A DNA stretch of 64,000 nt from Candidatus Rifleibacteriota bacterium (GCA_028689875.1 JAQVCG010000003.1:3662-67661); one strand, 5' to 3'. Positions 4,557 through 18,757 are shown, numbered from the stretch's first letter. The notes: generated by a model not told the origin, from the sequence alone. Numbers and translations: made by a program.

Positions 4557-5597
4557 CTAGAACCCTTTACAATCGCCTCTTGCCACAACAACTTGGTAGC
4601 CAATCTTTTGCATTTGCTCTTTAAGTTGTTCAAGGCCTTCAGCAGATTCAATTCCGGTGTTTATTTTATTATCATATATCAAATATTTTTTTCTAACATC
4701 AGTTGGTGAAAGATTGGGCATAATAACGTTAGCCCCGGCGAGAATTCCTTTTTCTCTGCCGTTTTCAGAGATAGTGCCTAACGCGGTAGTAGCAGGAATC
4801 AACAAATTAGGCAGCATTAGTCGCAGTAAACCGAGCATGAAAAGAGTCAGTTCAACCGAGCCATTTTGTTTGTCCGCAAACGGGGTATCGTGATGCGAAA
4901 TAAAGGGGCCGATACCAACCATGTGCGGCTTCAAGTCTGCCAAAAAGATCATATCTTCAGCCAAATTTTCTGTCGTTTGCCAGGGTGATCCGACCATAAA
5001 GCCGCTTCCAACCTGATAACCGATGTCGCGCAAATCGTACAAACATTGTTTTCTTGTCTTAAGACTTAATTCGGGCGGGTGTAATTTTGCATAATGTTCA
5101 TCAACAGCGGTTTCGTGGCGCAGTAAATACCTGTTTGCACCCGCATCATATAATCGTTTATAAGATTCGTATGATTTTTCGCCGAGCGAGAGTGTAATTG
5201 CACAATCAGGATACATTTTTCTGATTTTTTCTATTACGGAGACCAGCATGTCGTCAGTAATAGCCAAATCTTCGCCGCCTTGCATTACAAATGTTCTAAA
5301 ACCAAGTTTATATCCGGTTTCGCATGAACTTAGAATTTGTTCTTCGTTTAATCTGTATCTTTCGGCGTTTTTATTGCTTCTTCGTAAGCCGCAGTATAAG
5401 CAATCATTCTTACAATAGCTTGAAACCTCAATCAGACCTCTGATGTAGACATCTTTTCCGTAGATGGAGTGTCTTATGGCACGAGCACGTTCAAACAGGT
5501 ATTCTGCCAAATCGGGAGTTCTGCCATTTATCAAGGTCACAAACTCTTCAATAGTGAGTTTGTTTTCGGCTTCAAGTTTATTGATTAGTTTTAGCAT
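4557..5597 (-). CDS. hydE: [FeFe]-hydrogenase maturase HydE (radical SAM)
   Basis: It has the radical SAM motif CKNDCLYCGLR and a BioB-like fold length (346 aa). It is the first gene of the hydE-hydG-hydF string, with 17- and 21-nt spacers. Confidence 0.85.
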   Translation of the reverse strand: MLKLINKLEAENKLTIEEFVTLINGRTPDLAEYLFERARAIRHSIYGKDVYIRGLIEVSSYCKNDCLYCGLRRSNKNAERYRLNEEQILSSCETGYKLGFRTFVMQGGEDLAITDDMLVSVIEKIRKMYPDCAITLSLGEKSYESYKRLYDAGANRYLLRHETAVDEHYAKLHPPELSLKTRKQCLYDLRDIGYQVGSGFMVGSPWQTTENLAEDMIFLADLKPHMVGIGPFISHHDTPFADKQNGSVELTLFMLGLLRLMLPNLLIPATTALGTISENGREKGILAGANVIMPNLSPTDVRKKYLIYDNKINTGIESAEGLEQLKEQMQKIGYQVVVARGDCKGF

Positions 5598-5764
5598 AAT
5601 GCAATGATACTATTGCAGAGTTTTTTTGTCCACAAGAGAGTGTAATTTTTCACAAAGTCAATAAGAGTTTAAAACTATTCTCAAGCTAAACTTTTGCATA
5701 AACATTGCATCGCAGGAATTTGAATGCTAACCTTTAGGTAATCTATTAAATTTGGAGACTCTAT

Positions 5765-6205
5765 ATGGCTGTTAAAGTTTCAATATGGCAAACATTCAGT
5801 AAACTTAAATTAGAATTTGGACTCATCATTCTTTGCCTTTTACAATTTATTAAAATCATGTTCACGCTTATTACAGCAGGCCCCCAATTTAAAGGCATTT
5901 TTGAGGGTCTCAATGTCGAATTGCCTACTGTCAGCATAATTATATTAAGCTTTAATGACCTGTTTTATTCCTGGTGGTTTATAATTTTGCCGTTGATTAT
6001 TGTTATTCCCTTAGGCATAGCAATAGCTTGCATGAAAATCCTATTTACTAAAACAGCACAAAACCCTGATAGCGACTCAACTATTAAGCTACAATCCGTA
6101 ATTACTATTCTCTCTCTAATAACCATTGTATCGTTGGCATTTATAGGTGAAGCAATCAATAACGCAATTATGGCGCCCCTTCTGAGACTTGTTAACCCAA
6201 TGTAA
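5765..6205 (+). CDS. small 3-TM membrane protein resembling the membrane core of PilC/GspF platform proteins (no cytoplasmic T2SSF domains)
   Basis: A GGAG sits 7 nt upstream of the ATG. PQFKGIFEGLNVELPTVSIIILSFNDLFYSWWFIILPL matches the conserved TM1-loop-TM2 segment of PilC/GspF (compare P. aeruginosa PilC [37 protein letters not shown]). The C-terminal AIMAPLLRLV resembles the PilC terminal AMYLPIFQL. Confidence 0.45.
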   Translation: MAVKVSIWQTFSKLKLEFGLIILCLLQFIKIMFTLITAGPQFKGIFEGLNVELPTVSIIILSFNDLFYSWWFIILPLIIVIPLGIAIACMKILFTKTAQNPDSDSTIKLQSVITILSLITIVSLAFIGEAINNAIMAPLLRLVNPM

Positions 6206-6208
6206 CAA

Positions 6209-6886
6209 TTACTTAAGCTCGAATACTTTACCGGGCTCAAGTATAATTACTTCAGCGTTTTTGCCGACCTTATTCTTAAACTGATTTGGGTCGGCATTAA
6301 TAGCCGGAAAAGTATTATAATGTATAGGAACAACTCGTTTTGTCTGCAAATATTCAACTGCAATGGCGGCCGCGTCTACGCCCATTGTGTAAGTATCGCC
6401 AATCGGCAAAAAACTTAAATCGGGCTTAAACAGGTCACCAATCAGCTTCATTTCTAGGGTAAGTCCTGTATCGCCGGCGTGATAAACCTTTGACCCGTTC
6501 ATTTCGACTACAAACCCCGCCGGGGATCCAATATTCGCTGAATGGGCAGCAAAAACCATATTAAATACAACCCCGTCGACGACAATTTTGCCCCCGACAT
6601 TCATTCCAAGGGTCTTTAGGCCATGTTTTTCGGCTTTGTTAGCAAGCTCAGCACCACCTATGAAGGTCGCGTTATTTTCTTTGCAAATCGCGAAGGCATC
6701 GCCTATATGGTCACCATGTGCATGAGTTACGGCCACAAAGTCGACACCTGTTGATTGTTTTGCTCTCAGATTTTGCGAAGGACCTGCAAAGAATGGGTCA
6801 ATCAGTATAGTTTTATCTGCCTCAAGCTTAACGGCTGAATGGCCTAACCAAGTTATTTTCATCACAGCTCCTTTGCAATTTGTCAA
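6209..6886 (-). CDS. metal-dependent hydrolase, metallo-beta-lactamase fold (UPF0173-like)
   Basis: MKITWLGHSAVKLE...ILIDPFF and HAHGDH (HxHxDH) are present. The start is either 6886 (an ATGA overlap with the upstream fumarase stop) or the internal ATG at 6862 (MKITWLGHS). Confidence 0.75.
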   Translation of the reverse strand: MTNCKGAVMKITWLGHSAVKLEADKTILIDPFFAGPSQNLRAKQSTGVDFVAVTHAHGDHIGDAFAICKENNATFIGGAELANKAEKHGLKTLGMNVGGKIVVDGVVFNMVFAAHSANIGSPAGFVVEMNGSKVYHAGDTGLTLEMKLIGDLFKPDLSFLPIGDTYTMGVDAAAIAVEYLQTKRVVPIHYNTFPAINADPNQFKNKVGKNAEVIILEPGKVFELK

Positions 6887-11939: not shown

Positions 11940-12311
11940 CTAGAAATCGGAGTAATTTTTACCGTCGAGGCTTTGGCCTTCGGCACCGGATTTCACATCA
12001 TAAAGATCGTTTAGGCCCTCTTCGGAGGGCACATAGACCCAAGTATCAGTGCGATTGGTAAAGGGATCTAGGGGCACAGATCGCAGATAACCCTCTTTAA
12101 CGAGAGTATTTAGTGATTCGGGCCATTTTTCGTTGTCTTTGTAGTAATCACTTATCAGAGAGCGAAAAGTCTGCAAATTCTGTTTAAGAGCAGACTCTTT
12201 AGCACGGGTTACAGATTTGCTGTACATTGGCGTGACGGCGGCGACTAGAACACCTATGATTGCAACTACCACGCTGAGTTCTATAAGAGTAAAGCCTTTT
12301 TTGCGTGTCAT
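11940..12311 (-). CDS. GspG-like type II secretion / type IV pilin-family pseudopilin
   Basis: It has a class III signal peptide and the N-methylation motif MTRKKG|FTLIELSVVVAIIGVL, with Glu at position +5. The body (LxxALxxYYxDNxxWPxSLxxLVxEGYLxxVPxDPF...Y...SGAEG..LDG) is colinear with GspG/EpsG. Confidence 0.85.
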   Translation of the reverse strand: MTRKKGFTLIELSVVVAIIGVLVAAVTPMYSKSVTRAKESALKQNLQTFRSLISDYYKDNEKWPESLNTLVKEGYLRSVPLDPFTNRTDTWVYVPSEEGLNDLYDVKSGAEGQSLDGKNYSDF

Positions 12312-12348
12312 TTGAATAACCTCTAAATCTATTTAAATTGGCGATTTA

Positions 12349-13389
12349 TCAAACTTTTGTTGATCTTAAAAGTTCAAGAAATGCGTCAGCAGAGGGTCTG
12401 TCGATGGCATTTTTCAGAATAAGGTGGTTTATATATTCTCCAAAGAGTGCACTGCCCATGGCTAGATTCATTATGTTGCCTTCCAGTTGTGAAGCTTTGC
12501 CTTTTTGAATGATTCCTGCGGCAATGCTGTTCATAATCAAGGTTTCAAAAGCAGGCACAATCTGGTTGCCATTTTTTGTTGAAATTAGTGCCTGAGAACA
12601 GACTCCAATCAGGTTGTCAGCCAGCACCTGCCACACGTAATCTCTGTGTTCTTCGGGAAAATCGAAAACAAACTTTTCGATTGCTGCGACGAAACCTAAT
12701 GAAGACATAGCAAGTATGACAAAACTGCCGCCTGCAACCAGCTCTAGTATGCTTTTAAACGGGATAGTTTGTTTTATGTCAGATATAATAAAGGTATCGA
12801 CGTCCATTTTTTTTGCAAAATTGAGTCCTTGGTTGAAGTCAAGAATGTCTTTGCCTATTTGTCTTTGTGTTATTCGAGATTTTTTAGATTCAAAGTTAAA
12901 TTCTATGGGGTCTTCGATAGTAATTATGTGTCTCGAGAATTTGTTATTAAGGTGCTCAACGATAGCCGCTATTGTTGTAGATATGCCTGATCTTGCAGGG
13001 CCGGTGATAATAAACAAACCTTTTCTTGATTCAATTAAAGGAATTAATGCATCAGGGAAGTTTATTTCTTTAAGCCCCGGTATTTTATTGCTGATTATTT
13101 TAATGATCAGCACCGGTTTTTCTTGTGCTTGAAATACTGTTAAGCGTATGTTTGCGGATAATTTTCCGAAGATATTTATTTCAAAAAAGGTTTTTTTTGC
13201 CACTTTTTTAAGTTCTTCGGGAGCCAATAACTCGTTTAACACGCCTGTCACGTCTTCTTCAACAATTATCGGCAAATCCATGCCACGAAGCTGTTTATTT
13301 TTGCGCATAAGCGGCTTTGAGCCTATTTTGAGCTGAATTTCATTGCCGCCTTCGCTGATTACTTTTTCTACCAGTTTTCCTATATCCAT
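12349..13389 (-). CDS. PilT-family ATPase paralogue, degenerate (Walker A Lys replaced by Ile; Walker B and His box altered)
   Basis: It is PilT-sized (346 aa) and colinear with PilT. The Asp box TIEDPIEF is intact. Walker A reads GPARSGIST, with the Ile codon ATA at 12982-12984 on the minus strand. Walker B reads FIISDIKQ instead of ILVGEMRD. The His-box histidines are replaced (GGSFVILAMSS). Confidence 0.8.
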   Translation of the reverse strand: MDIGKLVEKVISEGGNEIQLKIGSKPLMRKNKQLRGMDLPIIVEEDVTGVLNELLAPEELKKVAKKTFFEINIFGKLSANIRLTVFQAQEKPVLIIKIISNKIPGLKEINFPDALIPLIESRKGLFIITGPARSGISTTIAAIVEHLNNKFSRHIITIEDPIEFNFESKKSRITQRQIGKDILDFNQGLNFAKKMDVDTFIISDIKQTIPFKSILELVAGGSFVILAMSSLGFVAAIEKFVFDFPEEHRDYVWQVLADNLIGVCSQALISTKNGNQIVPAFETLIMNSIAAGIIQKGKASQLEGNIMNLAMGSALFGEYINHLILKNAIDRPSADAFLELLRSTKV

Positions 13390-13400
13390 TTTTCACTCTC

Positions 13401-14441
13401 CTAGTTGCTGAACCGCTTTTTGTCGATAGAGAATTCGGCTGCCGCCTTTTTGGTAATATAGCCGGTTCTAAGAAGTTCAGCCAGTTGCGAATCGAAGGTT
13501 TTCATTCCTGCTATCTCGCCTTGCGACTGCAAAGTTCTGAACATTGTGAAGTTGTTGTTTCTGATTAAAGAGCGCAGTTGGGGAGTGTTGACCATAACGT
13601 CAAAAATAGCTTTGCGCCCGCTTTGGTCTGTTTTTGGCACCAAACGCTGACTTATAATCATAGTCAGCTGAGATGCCAACTTAGAGCGCAACATTTCACG
13701 TTCAGAAGGGCTTCTTAAATTTATAATTCTTTCTAATATTTGCAGACAATCGCCGCCTTCGGTTCCGCCTATTACTGTGGTTCCGCTTTCACAAAGGCTT
13801 AGAGCTTTATCCATTGCATCGGGATAATTGAGTGAGTCAGAAACAACCACATCGGGGTTAACTCTGCCCATTTCACACAGACCGGCATAGAAATTACTTA
13901 TATCCAGAGGAATACTTCTTTGAATAATGGCAGATTTATTATCTTTGAACACGTATTCAACGGGGTTTTCAATAGTAATTATATTTTTTTCAAAATAGCT
14001 GTTATAAAAATTTATAATCGAAGCAATAGTGCTTGTTTTGCCCTCGCCTGAAGAGCTTCCGACCAAAATTAGGCCGGCATGTTGCGCCAGAACCTTTTTA
14101 ATGGCTTCAGAGAATCCCAATTCTTGAAAACCATAAATTTTGTCACTTATAAAGCGCACCGACATGGCAAAACGCCCTCTATCAAAAAAAACAGAGAAGC
14201 GCAGTCTGCCCACAGTTTCGACATCTGCCGCATAAGTTACTTGCCTATATTTACCGAGTATCTCACGGGCTTTTGGGGAGCTTGTTTCTAGTATTATTTT
14301 TTTAATATGCTCTTCAGCGACTGTTAACGAATCTAAGGTTTGTATTGTGCCGTTAACCCGATAATATACCGGACAATCTGGGTAAAGATGCATATCAGAT
14401 GCACCTTTAACTTTTACAAGCTGACAAACTTTTAAAAGCAT
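13401..14441 (-). CDS. PilT-family ATPase paralogue, degenerate (P-loop Lys retained; Walker B and His box altered)
   Basis: The 346-aa protein is colinear with PilT (ASDMHL..., RFSVF...). Walker A reads GSSSGEGKTST. The Asp box reads TIENPVEY. Walker B reads VVVSDSLNY instead of ILVGEMRD. The His box reads ESGTTVIGGTEGG instead of ETGHLVFGTLHT. Confidence 0.8.
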   Translation of the reverse strand: MLLKVCQLVKVKGASDMHLYPDCPVYYRVNGTIQTLDSLTVAEEHIKKIILETSSPKAREILGKYRQVTYAADVETVGRLRFSVFFDRGRFAMSVRFISDKIYGFQELGFSEAIKKVLAQHAGLILVGSSSGEGKTSTIASIINFYNSYFEKNIITIENPVEYVFKDNKSAIIQRSIPLDISNFYAGLCEMGRVNPDVVVSDSLNYPDAMDKALSLCESGTTVIGGTEGGDCLQILERIINLRSPSEREMLRSKLASQLTMIISQRLVPKTDQSGRKAIFDVMVNTPQLRSLIRNNNFTMFRTLQSQGEIAGMKTFDSQLAELLRTGYITKKAAAEFSIDKKRFSN

Positions 14442-14460
14442 TTTTGTATCCTACCTTCTT

Positions 14461-16605
14461 TTACATTCTCTGCAGCAATTCTAACACATTTTTAAGAACT
14501 TGGCTGTCAGGCGGAAGCGTTTTTCTTAAGCCCTCAAGTATGATTCGGGCTTTATCAGTTTCGCCGATAGCAAAATGGCAGAGCGCCAAGTGATAAGTCG
14601 ACGACAAATCGCGAGCATTAGCCTTTAACCCCACATTTAAAGCCGCAATAGCTTCAGCATATTTTCTTTGGTTGTAATAAGCCAGTCCTAAGGCCCCGAA
14701 TACTTTGATAATATTCTTTTTGTCGTCGCTTTTAAGATATTTTTTAAGTATTTGGTAACATTTTGCAAGATTTGCCCAATCTTTGTTTCTAAAATAAACT
14801 TGCCCCAGTAAAATACCGGAATTTATTCTTTCGGGGTTCAGTTCAAACACCTTTGATAGAGCGCTCTCAGCGCCTGCCATATCGCCCAGTTTATATAGAG
14901 TGCTGCCCAAAAAGTAGCCTGCATCGGCATTTTCCGGTTGAATTGCCAAAAATTCAGTAAACACATCGCGTGCACGAGCAAAATCTTCGTTAAGATAATA
15001 TTCGCGGCCTTTTGCCATAAGTTCTTCAGGGGTCATTGCGGGCACATCAAAGTTAGCTACACCCGCCATATCGGCTTTAACTTCTTTTTCAAAGGCTTTT
15101 AGAAGCACCGTCGAATAGGCATCAACATTTTGCACAAAAGCCCCTACCTCGCCTGCAATACGCACGAACACGGTTTTTTCTTGTTCTCTCTTTTTATCTG
15201 CCAGTCCCTGCGCAACCTCTTCAAAGACCGGTAATTCACCGTTTAAAAGCAAGGCGCGATAGTATTCTGCAAAAACTCCGGCTCTTACCGGACCCAAAAA
15301 CTTTTTGGCTTTAACAAGACATTCACGGGCGCCCAAATGCCCTAACGCGGCTATAAGCCACTCAATTTCTTCTTCTTTTTCCAGTTTGATTCTGTTGAGT
15401 ATTTTTTCTGAAGTCACGCTCAGCTGGTGCTTTACGATATATTTCAATATTACTTCGATAACCGGAGATGAGTTTTCTTTGTCTAATAATTCAACTATTT
15501 TTTCATCAGGGAAATCGTTGATGAAAGTTGCGCATTCAACCGCTTCTCTTCTGACCCATTCGCTTTCATCATTTAGCAAAGGCAGAATTTCGCGCAGTCC
15601 GACAGCGCTTGTTAGTGACAAAGCTGCTTTTAATGCCATTTTTCGCACACCAGGATTACTATCGCCTAAAAGCTTATGAATATACTCTTCGCGTTTGGGA
15701 TTTTCGATAACCGACAAAACATATGCGGCCGAACGTCTTGTTGGAGCATCGGCGCTTACTATCATAGCATCAAGTTCATCACTCACAGCTTTTGGGTCTG
15801 CCTTTGCAAGCGCCAAACACACATTGGCTCTGACACGATTATTCGGGTGACCGTAAAAGTTTTTGAGTTTGCGTTTCATTTCCAGAGCGGGAATTTTTAG
15901 CATGGAAATAGCTTCGACGGCATTAGCTTGAATACGCGGGTCAAATGATTCTAAGCCGCTTTCAAAGGTCTTAAGCAGCCGCCCTTCTGCAAAGGTTGAA
16001 AGTGACGATATAATTATTGCTTTAAGACGAGCATCGCGAGAGGTTTCGAACTGTCCTACCAGCGCCGGCACAGCTTCGGGATCCTGCATTTTAGATAAAA
16101 TTTCTAATACGTTAATAACTATCCATTCGTCAGGGTCGCTGAGCAAGCTGCAAAGCGCATGCACAACATCGCGGCCGCCCATTTTAAAAAGGGCACGTGC
16201 AGAATAATATCTGACCATCCTGTCTTCGTCGTGCAAAAGCTCCATTAAGGATTTGGTGGCCATTGGGTCGCCAATTTCGCCCAGCACGCGCACTATTTCG
16301 TCTTTATAAAGGGCATCGGGGTCTTGCAGTCTGTCTATGAGCTTTGATACGGGCGAGCTGTTTTTGAAATACCCTAATGCGGTTATAGGCTCAACATAGT
16401 CGTAAAAATGATCGAATGCGCGCGTTAACACAGACAAGGATTCGGGGTCACCTATTTTTCCTAACGCCAAAAGCGATTCAAGTCTTAATGTGTCGGATGA
16501 ATCATCATCGGCGGCGATCTTTTCGAGTGTCTGGGTCGCAGGTTTCAGCAGTCTGCGTGCCGCTTTAACATATCTAAACGATTCAATTTCAAAAGTAGCA
16601 GTCAT
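14461..16605 (-). CDS. HEAT-repeat (PBS-lyase-type) plus C-terminal TPR protein
   Basis: The N-terminal two thirds carry repeated DP..VR..A..AL..IGDP.A...L motifs (for example HDEDRMVRYYSARALFKMGGRDVVHALCSLLSDPDEWIV). The C-terminal third carries TPR units (YFLGSTLYKLGDMAGAESALSKVFELNP...). The start codon overlaps the stop of the upstream pilT as ATGA at 16602-16605. Confidence 0.8.
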   Translation of the reverse strand: MTATFEIESFRYVKAARRLLKPATQTLEKIAADDDSSDTLRLESLLALGKIGDPESLSVLTRAFDHFYDYVEPITALGYFKNSSPVSKLIDRLQDPDALYKDEIVRVLGEIGDPMATKSLMELLHDEDRMVRYYSARALFKMGGRDVVHALCSLLSDPDEWIVINVLEILSKMQDPEAVPALVGQFETSRDARLKAIIISSLSTFAEGRLLKTFESGLESFDPRIQANAVEAISMLKIPALEMKRKLKNFYGHPNNRVRANVCLALAKADPKAVSDELDAMIVSADAPTRRSAAYVLSVIENPKREEYIHKLLGDSNPGVRKMALKAALSLTSAVGLREILPLLNDESEWVRREAVECATFINDFPDEKIVELLDKENSSPVIEVILKYIVKHQLSVTSEKILNRIKLEKEEEIEWLIAALGHLGARECLVKAKKFLGPVRAGVFAEYYRALLLNGELPVFEEVAQGLADKKREQEKTVFVRIAGEVGAFVQNVDAYSTVLLKAFEKEVKADMAGVANFDVPAMTPEELMAKGREYYLNEDFARARDVFTEFLAIQPENADAGYFLGSTLYKLGDMAGAESALSKVFELNPERINSGILLGQVYFRNKDWANLAKCYQILKKYLKSDDKKNIIKVFGALGLAYYNQRKYAEAIAALNVGLKANARDLSSTYHLALCHFAIGETDKARIILEGLRKTLPPDSQVLKNVLELLQRM

Positions 16606-17639
16606 TCAACTATCTCTTTCATTATGTTACTAATCAGCTTAGGGTCAACTCTTTCGTCTTTTAGAATTTCCCCGAGTGAATCTTTGAGTGTCTTACACCC
16701 CTCTTTTCTGGCAAGCATCAAGGCTGATTTAAGCTGATTTGATTTTCTTTCGCGTATCATGTTTCTCATGGCCGAGTTTAGTATCATGAGCTCGTAAGCC
16801 ATGGCGCGTTCTTTTTTATGAATACAAGGCAAAAGGATTTGTGAAATAAGCCCTATAAGTGACATTGAAAGCTGGGTTCTGATTTCATCGTGTCTGTGGC
16901 CGGGAAACATATTGATTATGCGGTCAATTGTTTGCACTGCCCCGACTGTGTGAAGGGTCGAAAAGACAAGGTGTCCTGTTTCAGCGGCTGTAAGCACCAT
17001 TTCAATAGTTTCTACATCGCGCATTTCGCCTACCAGAATTACATCGGGGTCTTCTCTGAGAGCGTTCATTAAAGCACTCTGATAAGACGATGATGTTACG
17101 CCGATTTCACGTTGTGTAAAAATTGATTTTTTTTCTTTATAAACAAATTCTATGGGGTCTTCGATTGTAACAACATGCCTTGATGAGCTGCGGTTTATTT
17201 CGTTGACAATCGAGGCAAGAGTATGTGTTTTACCGGAGTTTGCGGGGCCGGTTACTAAGAACAGCCCGCGTGGCTTAAGAGCAATTTCTTTTAAAATTGG
17301 GGGCAATCCAAGATTGTCGACAGACGGAATGTCAAGGGGAATAAATCGAAAAGCGCCCGACAGACAACCTCTTTGCATATAAATACAAACGCGCACGCGC
17401 CAACGGTTTTTATATTTAGCCATAAAGTTGGCCTCAAAGGTTTGCTTAAGATCTGTTTGCGACTTTACGTCCATTAGGGGCAAAAACAAATTTGGCATTT
17501 CTTGGTAGGCCAAAGGTTGTTCTGCAAGAGGAATAAGCCTGCCGCCGACTCTTATAATTGGCGGCGAACCGGCTTTAAGATGCAAATCTGAGGCTTTTCG
17601 TTCAATTGCGATTTCAAAATATTTATATATTTTCAGCAT
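16602..17639 (-). CDS. pilT: PilT-type (retraction-type) type IV pilus ATPase, catalytic motifs intact
   Basis: All four catalytic boxes are intact: Walker A GPANSGKT, Asp box TIEDPIEF, Walker B DPDVILVGEMRD and His box ETGHLVFSTLHT. At 345 aa it lacks a PilB/GspE N-terminal extension. Confidence 0.85.
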   Translation of the reverse strand: MLKIYKYFEIAIERKASDLHLKAGSPPIIRVGGRLIPLAEQPLAYQEMPNLFLPLMDVKSQTDLKQTFEANFMAKYKNRWRVRVCIYMQRGCLSGAFRFIPLDIPSVDNLGLPPILKEIALKPRGLFLVTGPANSGKTHTLASIVNEINRSSSRHVVTIEDPIEFVYKEKKSIFTQREIGVTSSSYQSALMNALREDPDVILVGEMRDVETIEMVLTAAETGHLVFSTLHTVGAVQTIDRIINMFPGHRHDEIRTQLSMSLIGLISQILLPCIHKKERAMAYELMILNSAMRNMIRERKSNQLKSALMLARKEGCKTLKDSLGEILKDERVDPKLISNIMKEIVE

Positions 17640-17641
17640 AA

Positions 17642-18757
17642 TCAGACCCTTTGCCCGACGACTTCGTTAAGCAGTTTATGAAGAGAAGCAGGGTGCGGTG
17701 CAACTGAGAAAGCGTCTTCTTTAGATACAACGCGATCTTTAACAAGTCGGGCGAGCGACATTTCCATTGTGCACATACCCTGCTCAACGCCTGTTTCGAG
17801 ATAAGAGGGCAGCATATGTATTTTGCCTTCGGCGATTAGAGAGCGGACTGCCGATGTGTTCAGCAATATTTCGAATGCTGCGACACGGCCGCCATCGATT
17901 TTTGGAACTAAGACCTGTGAAACCACGCCGCGCAGAACCATAGAAAGCTGTAAAAGTATTTGCTGATGCTTTGATTCAGGAAATACATTGACGATTCTCT
18001 CTGCAGTTGCAACAGCCGATGTTGTATGCAGAGTTGCCAAAACAAGTTTTCCGGTTTCAGCGGCATTTAGGGTCAAAGAAATTGTAGAAGGCTCGCGCAT
18101 TTCGCCTACAACGACTATATCCGGGTCTTGGCGCAATACGGTCAAGAGACCGTCATAGAAGCTCAGGCAGTCAGAGCCGACCTGGCGTTGGTTAAAATAG
18201 CTTTTTTTGTCTTCGAATTGGTATTCGATGGGGTCTTCGAGGCTTACTACATGGCGGGCGGCTTCGTTGTTAACGTAGTTTAGGTAGCTTGCCATGGTTG
18301 AAGTTTTACCGGCACCGGTGGGGCCTGTTATTAAAATAAGTCCGTTAGGCTGCTCAATGAGCCTTCTTGCGGCCTGTGGCAAACCGATTTCGTCGAAAGT
18401 CATGATGCGGTATGGAATAACGCGAAAAACAGCGCCGAAGCCGTTAAGGTCGGTATAAAGATTAACTCTGAAACGGCATATTCCCTCGAGAGCATATGAA
18501 AAGTCAAGTTCGTGCTTTTCTCTGAATATGCGCTCTTGCTCTTGATTCAGCAAAACTTCGATAATTTTTTCGAAATCATATTTGTTGAATTTATATTCTT
18601 TGAGCTGCTTGATTACACCATCAATTCTGATAGCGGGAGGTTTTCCGACTTTAAGATGCAAGTCAGAAGCGTTTTGTTCGAAAGTAAGCTTAAGCAATTT
18701 AAATAAACTTCGTTCGTCTGCCATAGTTTTAGAGTATACCTGCTTATTGATGTACAT
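17642..18757 (-). CDS. pilT: PilT-type type IV pilus ATPase, catalytic motifs intact
   Basis: All four catalytic boxes are intact: Walker A GPTGAGKT, Asp box LEDPIEY, Walker B DPDIVVVGEMRE and His box ETGKLVLATLHT. The alternative start at 18724 (MADERSL) cannot be excluded. Confidence 0.85.
   Translation of the reverse strand: MYINKQVYSKTMADERSLFKLLKLTFEQNASDLHLKVGKPPAIRIDGVIKQLKEYKFNKYDFEKIIEVLLNQEQERIFREKHELDFSYALEGICRFRVNLYTDLNGFGAVFRVIPYRIMTFDEIGLPQAARRLIEQPNGLILITGPTGAGKTSTMASYLNYVNNEAARHVVSLEDPIEYQFEDKKSYFNQRQVGSDCLSFYDGLLTVLRQDPDIVVVGEMREPSTISLTLNAAETGKLVLATLHTTSAVATAERIVNVFPESKHQQILLQLSMVLRGVVSQVLVPKIDGGRVAAFEILLNTSAVRSLIAEGKIHMLPSYLETGVEQGMCTMEMSLARLVKDRVVSKEDAFSVAPHPASLHKLLNEVVGQRV

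Follow-up and report, generated by a model that had tools for sequence, protein, structure and literature searches.

A family of short membrane proteins homologous to the PilC/GspF platform protein and lacking its T2SSF domains in Candidatus Riflebacteria

The open reading frame (ORF) at positions 5765-6205 of the 64,000-nucleotide stretch analysed here (the window), which comes from a Candidatus Rifleibacteriota MAG, encodes a 146-aa membrane protein, referred to below as the mini. The mini belongs to a family that is homologous to PilC/GspF, the platform protein of type IV filament machines. The family is previously undescribed and comes from an uncultured phylum, within which it is patchily distributed, and no core-only PilC-like protein was found in literature searches on truncated PilC/GspF or on this phylum. 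In the following we describe the gene and its conservation, the evidence for homology, the spread of the family, and the roles that it may play.

The gene, its product and its conservation

The ORF runs on the + strand from an ATG at 5765 to a TAA at 6203-6205. An earlier reading of this DNA from its sequence alone (the sequence-only reading) had reported a 146-aa ORF with a GGAG Shine-Dalgarno sequence at -7; its coordinates and the Shine-Dalgarno sequence are confirmed, and the latter is kept in the orthologue. The gene is stand-alone. Upstream, a gap of 167 nt separates it from the divergent hydE, part of a hydE-hydG-hydF operon, and downstream a convergent gene for an MBL-fold hydrolase ends 3 nt past the mini stop (stop codons at 6203-6205 and 6209-6211, respectively). 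No terminator-like hairpin was found in 5560-6300. The DNA runs listed are all metagenomes of landfill, sludge or wastewater. Between hydE and the mini, a block of ~42 nt at 5620-5662 (TTTTTTGTCCAC-AAGAGAGTGTAATTTTTCACAAAGTCAAT) is nearly identical in the genus-mate “bacterium ADurb.Bin157”, in contrast to a synonymous-site divergence from this genus-mate of 0.6-0.95. The block contains a promoter-like TGGACA...TATCAT on the minus strand, for hydE, and may additionally contain an operator or the mini's own promoter.

In a Kyte-Doolittle plot, the hydrophobicity of the mini peaks around residues 27, 81 and 120, and the charge distribution is compatible with the topology of PilC, the N-terminus inside and the C-terminus outside, in agreement with the three transmembrane (TM) helices predicted earlier. 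AlphaFold2 places helices at residues 15-49, 55-69, 71-99 and 104-143, with a mean pLDDT of 85 and a pTM of 0.72. The parts of the protein, with their coordinates, are listed in Table 1. The cytoplasmic loop of residues 91-110 stands in place of the ~110-aa Cyto2 T2SSF domain of PilC, and its FTKTA stretch resembles the start of PilC helix alpha-9. The column of its final residue, Q110, holds Q in 23 of 42 minis and R in a further 9, while P138 in the C-tail is invariant in the family alignment A2.

Table 1. Coordinates in the window of the mini gene, its ribosome-binding signal and the parts of its product
Feature	Residues	Position	Strand	Basis
Shine-Dalgarno GGAG		5754..5757	+	Read from the sequence, 7 nt 5' of the ATG; also in the orthologous locus L006
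Gene for core-only PilC-like protein, 146 aa	1-146	5765..6205	+	Stop included; syntenic orthologue, dN/dS, relatives of ~145 aa
Cytoplasmic N-tail with K/R-x-E/D motif (K15, E17)	1-17	5765..5815	+	Family column table
TM1	~18-38	5816..5878	+	Hydropathy peak at ~27; positional equivalent of PilC TMS1 without Tyr-Pro
Periplasmic loop motif PQFKGIFEGLNVELPTVS	39-57	5879..5935	+	hhalign, GspF model match, column conservation
Periplasmic amphipathic helix, W70/W71 kink and TM2	58-90	5936..6034	+	AlphaFold2; shared S-D and W-W columns
Cytoplasmic loop ending in conserved Q110	91-110	6035..6094	+	Alignment with cut PilC
TM3	~111-131	6095..6157	+	Hydropathy peak at ~120; equivalent of PilC TMS3 without Glu-Pro
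Periplasmic C-tail NNAIMAPLLRLVNPM	132-146	6158..6202	+	Matches PilC C-terminal motif A..PMLKLVN

The genus-mate carries an orthologue of the same length (146 aa), 70% identical and in the same gene order. Differences between the two genes fall on codon positions 1, 2 and 3 as 37/16/48, and dN/dS is 0.32, versus 0.05 for the adjacent hydE. Two stretches stand out in the orthologue pair, the N-terminal WQTFSKLKLEFGLII and NPDSDSTIKLQSVIT in the cytoplasmic loop: residues 8-22 are invariant and residues 96-114 almost so. Judged by these substitution patterns, the ORF is a real gene under purifying selection. The sequence-only reading had made its idea depend on conservation in relatives, which was found both as this syntenic orthologue and as the family described below; since the protein is conserved, chance hydrophobicity does not account for its resemblance to PilC/GspF. 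It is accordingly very improbable that the ORF is what is left of a decaying PilC gene, or an unexpressed ORF that arose by chance. Its shortness, the missing Pfam family, the bare annotation “hypothetical” and a dN/dS above that of the neighbouring genes are what such a reading would draw on. Against it stand the codon-position pattern and the dN/dS value themselves, an intact frame with a near-constant length of ~145 aa across dozens of divergent lineages, conserved motifs of the minis' own that are missing in PilC, the Shine-Dalgarno sequence conserved in the orthologue, and flanks that hold no T2SSF fragments and leave intergenic gaps of just 167 nt upstream and 3 nt downstream. We thus reject the option of a remnant, one of three that the sequence-only reading had offered, on the grounds of purifying selection, constant length and own motifs.

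Homology to the PilC/GspF membrane core

Used as a single sequence, the mini matches the NCBIfam GspF model (TIGR02120) with an E-value of 1.1e-5, its residues 22-87 corresponding to model positions 173-238, i.e., the TMS1-loop-TMS2 region, and 19 of 27 family members also match GspF, the best with an E-value of 1.4e-11. The scores lie below the curated family cut-offs: 24.8 bits versus 424 on TIGR02120, and 16-21 bits versus 401-700 on the PilC, HofC and XpsF models. The profile-profile comparison with PilC/GspF that the sequence-only reading had called for is significant. In hhalign, the family profile aligns with a profile of Riflebacteria PilC with a probability of 98.9% and an E-value of 1.9e-17, mini residues 35-86 corresponding to PilC residues 184-235. 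The C-terminal 36 residues, comprising TM3 and the tail, align end to end with the PilC C-terminus (E 5.9e-6, probability 85%), which bears out the parallel drawn earlier for this part. The N-terminal third of the mini, containing TM1, shows no detectable similarity to the PilC profile; similarity begins at the periplasmic end of TM1. The other parallel drawn earlier, over TM1-loop-TM2, hence stands for the end of TM1, the loop and TM2, but not for TM1 itself, which has neither profile similarity nor the Tyr-Pro pair.

Among PDB sequences, the family profile matches Myxococcus PilC (3jc8) with an E-value of 4.5e-5, and in related genomes it matches one particular full-length PilC per genome, with E-values of 1e-11 to 1e-21. 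The motifs of these closest full-length proteins are nearly mini-like, reading VLPQFKEIFxGMNVELPxxT...SDFMxxWWFIIIP...AVFMPMLKLVNA. The loop motif PQFKGIFEGLNVELPTVS is the best-conserved block common to minis and PilC/GspF. Minis and full-length PilC have in common the columns P, F, I, F, N, E, L, P and T of the periplasmic loop, as well as the columns A..P-M/L-L-x-L-V-N of the C-tail.

AlphaFold2 models of the mini and of a full-length PilC from the genus-mate (pLDDT 77) were also compared, and the predicted helix boundaries of the two coincide at constant offsets. At an offset of +172, the helix end at mini residue 49 corresponds to PilC residue 221, the loop 50-54 to 222-226, the helix 55-69 to 227-241, the kink at 70 to 242, and the helix start at 71 to 243 (helices 71-99 in the mini and 243-262 in PilC); at an offset of +276, the last helix of the mini, 104-143, corresponds to that of PilC, 366-420. 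A Foldseek search of the mini model against the PDB gave no match, which we attribute to there being no solved platform membrane core; in the PDB copy searched, no experimental structure of a PilC/GspF membrane core was found, the available model being EM-based.

The Pfam T2SSF model (PF00482) matches neither the mini nor any of 27 family members at E-values up to 1-10. The same model does detect both T2SSF domains in full-length PilC from the mini's own genome and from the genus-mate, and the null result is consistent with both cytoplasmic T2SSF domains (Cyto1 and Cyto2) being missing from the mini, which is too short to contain them. The minis also lack the N-domain of PilC. The earlier description of the protein as a platform membrane core without both T2SSF domains therefore holds, PF00482 being absent and the PilC-like membrane blocks homologous.

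The loss extends to residues within the membrane. In the PulF trimer model, which is experimentally supported, TMS1 and TMS3 form a six-helix bundle, and Y168-P169 of TMS1 and E370-P371 of TMS3 define the constriction of a central ion channel; the Tyr-Pro and Glu-Pro pairs are described as conserved across all GspF/PilC homologues (PMC10790770). We aligned 42 minis with the matching segments of 70 full-length proteins. The TMS1 Tyr and Pro are present in 70/70 full-length proteins each, the TMS3 Glu likewise in 70/70 and the TMS3 Pro in 68/70, versus 0/42 minis for all four residues, with mostly Leu in place of the Tyr and of the Glu. The conserved columns that minis and PilC do have in common are all periplasmic, comprising the end of TMS1, the loop, the amphipathic helix with its S-D and W-W, and the C-tail. 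Gained in the minis, at the cytoplasmic start of TM1, is an E/D (32/42) where PilC has an invariant Ala (70/70), preceded by a K/R (38/42), and the minis have Q/R at the start of TM3. Since the mini lacks the T2SSF domains and the channel pairs and stays below the score cut-offs, we regard it as a member of a PilC-derived family and not as a platform protein.

Distribution, origin and genomic context of the family

A profile built from two sequences was searched against 1.84 billion representative proteins. About 30 clusters of 125-159 aa match it over the full length and share a set of hallmarks: K/R-x-E/D before TM1, PQFKxIFxxMNVELPxxT, S-D, W-W, a short loop to Q, and a C-terminal PMLxLVN. 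The mini of the window has every hallmark of this class of ~125-160 aa and scores 157 bits against the family profile. No Pfam family was found for the single mini or the 27 members, and none in PHROGs; among the family members returned, the sole source name is “hypothetical protein”, that of the orthologue. The organisms that bear minis are Candidatus Riflebacteria/Rifleibacteriota, including Ozemobacteraceae and relatives of Rifleibacterium. Counting matches with full-length coverage in short frames, we found minis in at least 14 of 87 Riflebacteria genomes, in 9 genera and 5 families. One further protein in the search output, P0003 (1782 aa), matches profile residues 98-127 in 29 separate stretches (E 4e-31) and is probably a repeat or low-complexity protein.

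Full-length PilC/GspF paralogues number 2-10 in each of the 87 genomes, those with minis included, an unusually rich platform set for genomes of 3-8 Mb. In the present MAG, which is 71% complete, the search for a full-length pilC elsewhere in the genome that had been suggested earlier found two, both of other types; the type closest to the minis was not seen in this 71%-complete assembly. In the genus-mate, the closest-type PilC is an orphan, flanked by a topoisomerase gene and a gene for a PLP-enzyme of Cys/Met metabolism. This type of PilC (L126 9029-10294, genus-mate G001:C19; L014-L031) is very strongly conserved, with at least 67% identity between genera from several families of the phylum.

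Some genomes carry several minis. One locus (L122, G075:C302; 1697-2589 and 5052-6480) has five mini paralogues in two tandem groups, each group combining a canonical copy, with a PMLKLVNSVG tail, and a divergent copy whose tail ends in SGIS or NQGIS. This pairing suggests that minis form hetero-oligomers with each other. A similar pair of canonical and divergent copies precedes the mini P0034. Directly 5' of P0034 lies the gene for a 139-aa protein with three TM helices (L127 3600-4019). Its sequence VPDF...PPPPTQTLSD...W faintly recalls the loop motif, and the protein may represent a degenerate partner copy of the mini.

In a tree of minis and PilC built on 127 shared columns, 42 of 42 minis fall into one clade (SH-aLRT 93), the sister group of the Riflebacteria PilC clade within a larger set of PilC from other phyla. 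Branches of the minis are ~10 times longer than those of PilC. On these alignments, the tree fits a single origin of the minis by loss of the cytoplasmic part, followed by fast evolution and many losses; with so short an alignment and such long branches, long-branch attraction may contribute to the grouping.

The sequence-only reading had further tied the mini to a PilT operon ~6 kb away that lacks a normal platform gene. The operon is indeed without a full-length platform gene. This array occupies 11940-18757 of the minus strand and is made up of four PilT-like genes together with one gene for a HEAT/TPR protein and one for a GspG-like pseudopilin (11940-12311). The proposed tie does not extend beyond the genus. 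Mini and array are 5.7 kb apart, lie on opposite strands and are separated by four unrelated genes, and this neighbourhood is common to the genus-mate only. Orthologues of the array's Walker-A-dead PilT (12349-13389) were observed at full length and 39-57% identity in ~49 of 51 genomes of the family, and PilT-like matches in the remaining Riflebacteria families are just 27-29% identical to it; at an orthologue-level threshold, the array looks family-wide and not phylum-wide. Most array-bearing genomes of the family are without a mini, minis occurring in some of its genera only, and minis occur in four further families that are without the array. In other genera that have both, mini and array are always on different contigs.

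Nor did the surroundings of other minis point to pilus genes. Across the flanks retrieved for 18 further mini loci (~220 kb), no PilT/PilB-like or full-length PilC genes were found, and an all-against-all gene comparison of 11 loci revealed nothing in common with the window except the mini. The neighbours are unrelated housekeeping or signalling genes that vary by genus. Matches to a prepilin motif within 10 kb of a mini occur in two genera only, this genus and one other, g4, in which two prepilin-like genes lie ~6 kb from the mini; as a pattern they were rejected, two genera being judged consistent with chance. Radical-SAM genes beside three minis were likewise rejected as a pattern, as they belong to unrelated subfamilies. 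The missing linkage to pilus genes weighs little against a pilus role, as the full-length PilC most similar to the minis is an orphan too.

These distributions bear directly on another option of the sequence-only reading, that the mini is a truly minimised platform serving the four-gene PilT array and its pseudopilin. The 5.7 kb proximity in this genus and its genus-mate, the want of a full-length platform gene in the array operon, and the prepilin-like genes of g4 all speak for it, yet we consider it decidedly improbable. Strand and intervening genes separate the mini from the array; the array occurs in mostly mini-free genomes of its family, and minis in four array-free families; the two sit on different contigs wherever both occur in other genera; the 18 other flanks are without a PilT/PilB-like gene; and the mini lacks the cytoplasmic domains that contact the ATPase hexamer. 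Missing co-distribution and missing ATPase-docking domains thus make a minimised platform for the array unlikely.

Possible roles and comparison with known systems

Our preferred reading, put forward tentatively from sequence comparison, is that the mini binds the partners of the PilC face without being coupled to a motor, and in type IV filament assembly plays the part of a mimic, placeholder or modulator. As judged from its domain content, the mini would neither dock onto a PilB/PilT hexamer nor be powered by one, and the shared motifs suggest that it presents the same periplasmic face as PilC. With motor docking absent and this face kept, the mini would most likely bind the partners of that face, for which pilin transmembrane stems, the fibre base and alignment proteins are candidates. 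In pilus or pseudopilus assembly it could then act as a competitor, a placeholder or a modulator, whether on its own or as a subunit within PilC oligomers. Expression would be from its own promoter, as a stand-alone gene and not as part of the PilT array. The patchy distribution, the tandem expansions and the fast evolution fit an accessory or modulatory role over that of a core machine part, and among the three options of the sequence-only reading, a candidate inhibitor or decoy gives the best fit to the sequence data. Apart from the missing linkage to pilus genes, two points count against this reading: the loss of TMS1/TMS3 interface residues may block the mixing of minis into PilC trimers, and the conservation of the periplasmic-face motifs could stem from constraints on folding or membrane insertion and not from a shared partner. 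A phage-derived inhibitor was considered and rejected, as PHROGs and BFVD fold searches gave no match.

In a more specific and less probable form, suggested by the same comparisons, the minis would be self-encoded “platform decoys”, fast-evolving paralogues left with just the periplasmic face of PilC. Through this face, and with no ATPase involved, they would cap, park or poison machines of the type IV filament class. If so, this would be the first pilus machine regulated via a truncated copy of its own membrane core, and the minis would be a natural separation-of-function allele revealing what the periplasmic face of PilC binds.

Alternatively, and with less probability than the preferred reading, the minis could be neofunctionalised small membrane proteins with no tie to pili left, in which the PilC membrane core now serves another process as a scaffold, a small homo- or hetero-oligomeric channel or a membrane organiser. 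Gene neighbourhoods that are non-pilus and differ among genera, fast evolution of the family, a possible new polar site formed by the acidic residue gained at the start of TM1 and the Q/R at the start of TM3, and canonical/divergent tandem pairs suggestive of mini-only hetero-oligomers are all in line with this. However, the most conserved positions are exactly those that minis have in common with the PilC periplasmic face, which is unexpected if its partners are irrelevant; the neighbourhoods reveal no recurrent alternative pathway, the radical-SAM neighbours being of unrelated subfamilies; and the channel pairs Tyr-Pro and Glu-Pro of the PulF model are lost (PMC10790770). This loss also weakens the case for a self-sufficient, ATPase-free trimeric ion channel resembling the PulF/GspF transmembrane core, which we regard as improbable. 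Both helices of the six-helix bundle in the PulF model, TMS1 and TMS3, are represented in the mini (PMC10790770), the AlphaFold2 monomer fold is confident and TM1 carries a conserved acidic residue; yet the Tyr-Pro and Glu-Pro constriction is replaced by hydrophobic residues in 42 of 42 minis, and TM1 is without profile similarity to PilC TMS1.

How the motion of the ATPase, perhaps together with a flow of ions, is converted by PilC/GspF into the insertion of pilins is an open question in the field. The mini is in effect a natural construct with the periplasmic face and three helices in place, but with the proposed channel constriction and the domains for ATPase docking gone. Should it bind pilins or machine parts, it would reveal the function of the periplasmic face and give structural work a small, expressible handle; should it regulate pili, it would represent a new mode of control.

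Of known systems, GspF/PilC itself, as represented by Klebsiella PulF and Myxococcus PilC (3jc8), is the closest. It shares with the mini the TM1-end/loop/TM2 and TM3/C-tail blocks, the predicted helix boundaries and kink, and the three-TM topology with the N-terminus in and the C-terminus out, and the nearest relatives of the minis within GspF/PilC are the organism's own lineage-specific PilC. The two differ in size (~400 aa in GspF/PilC versus 146 aa in the mini), and the mini is without the N-domain, Cyto1, Cyto2 and the channel pairs, carries its own K/R-x-E/D motif and evolves ~10 times faster. Natural size variants of the platform family are also found in TadB/TadC (CpaG/CpaH) of Tad pili and in archaeal ArlJ/FlaJ, which show that the two-domain platform architecture can be split or reduced. 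These variants, however, keep at least one T2SSF bundle that meets the ATPase and are encoded in pilus operons, neither of which applies to the mini. From a different direction, the phage-encoded Tip and Aqs1 are small proteins that shut down type IV pili via PilB. Proteins of this kind resemble the mini in being small, patchily distributed and fast-evolving, the mini being like them a candidate post-translational modulator of pili; yet Tip and Aqs1 target the ATPase and are not derived from the machine, whereas the mini is a chromosomal paralogue of the platform protein.
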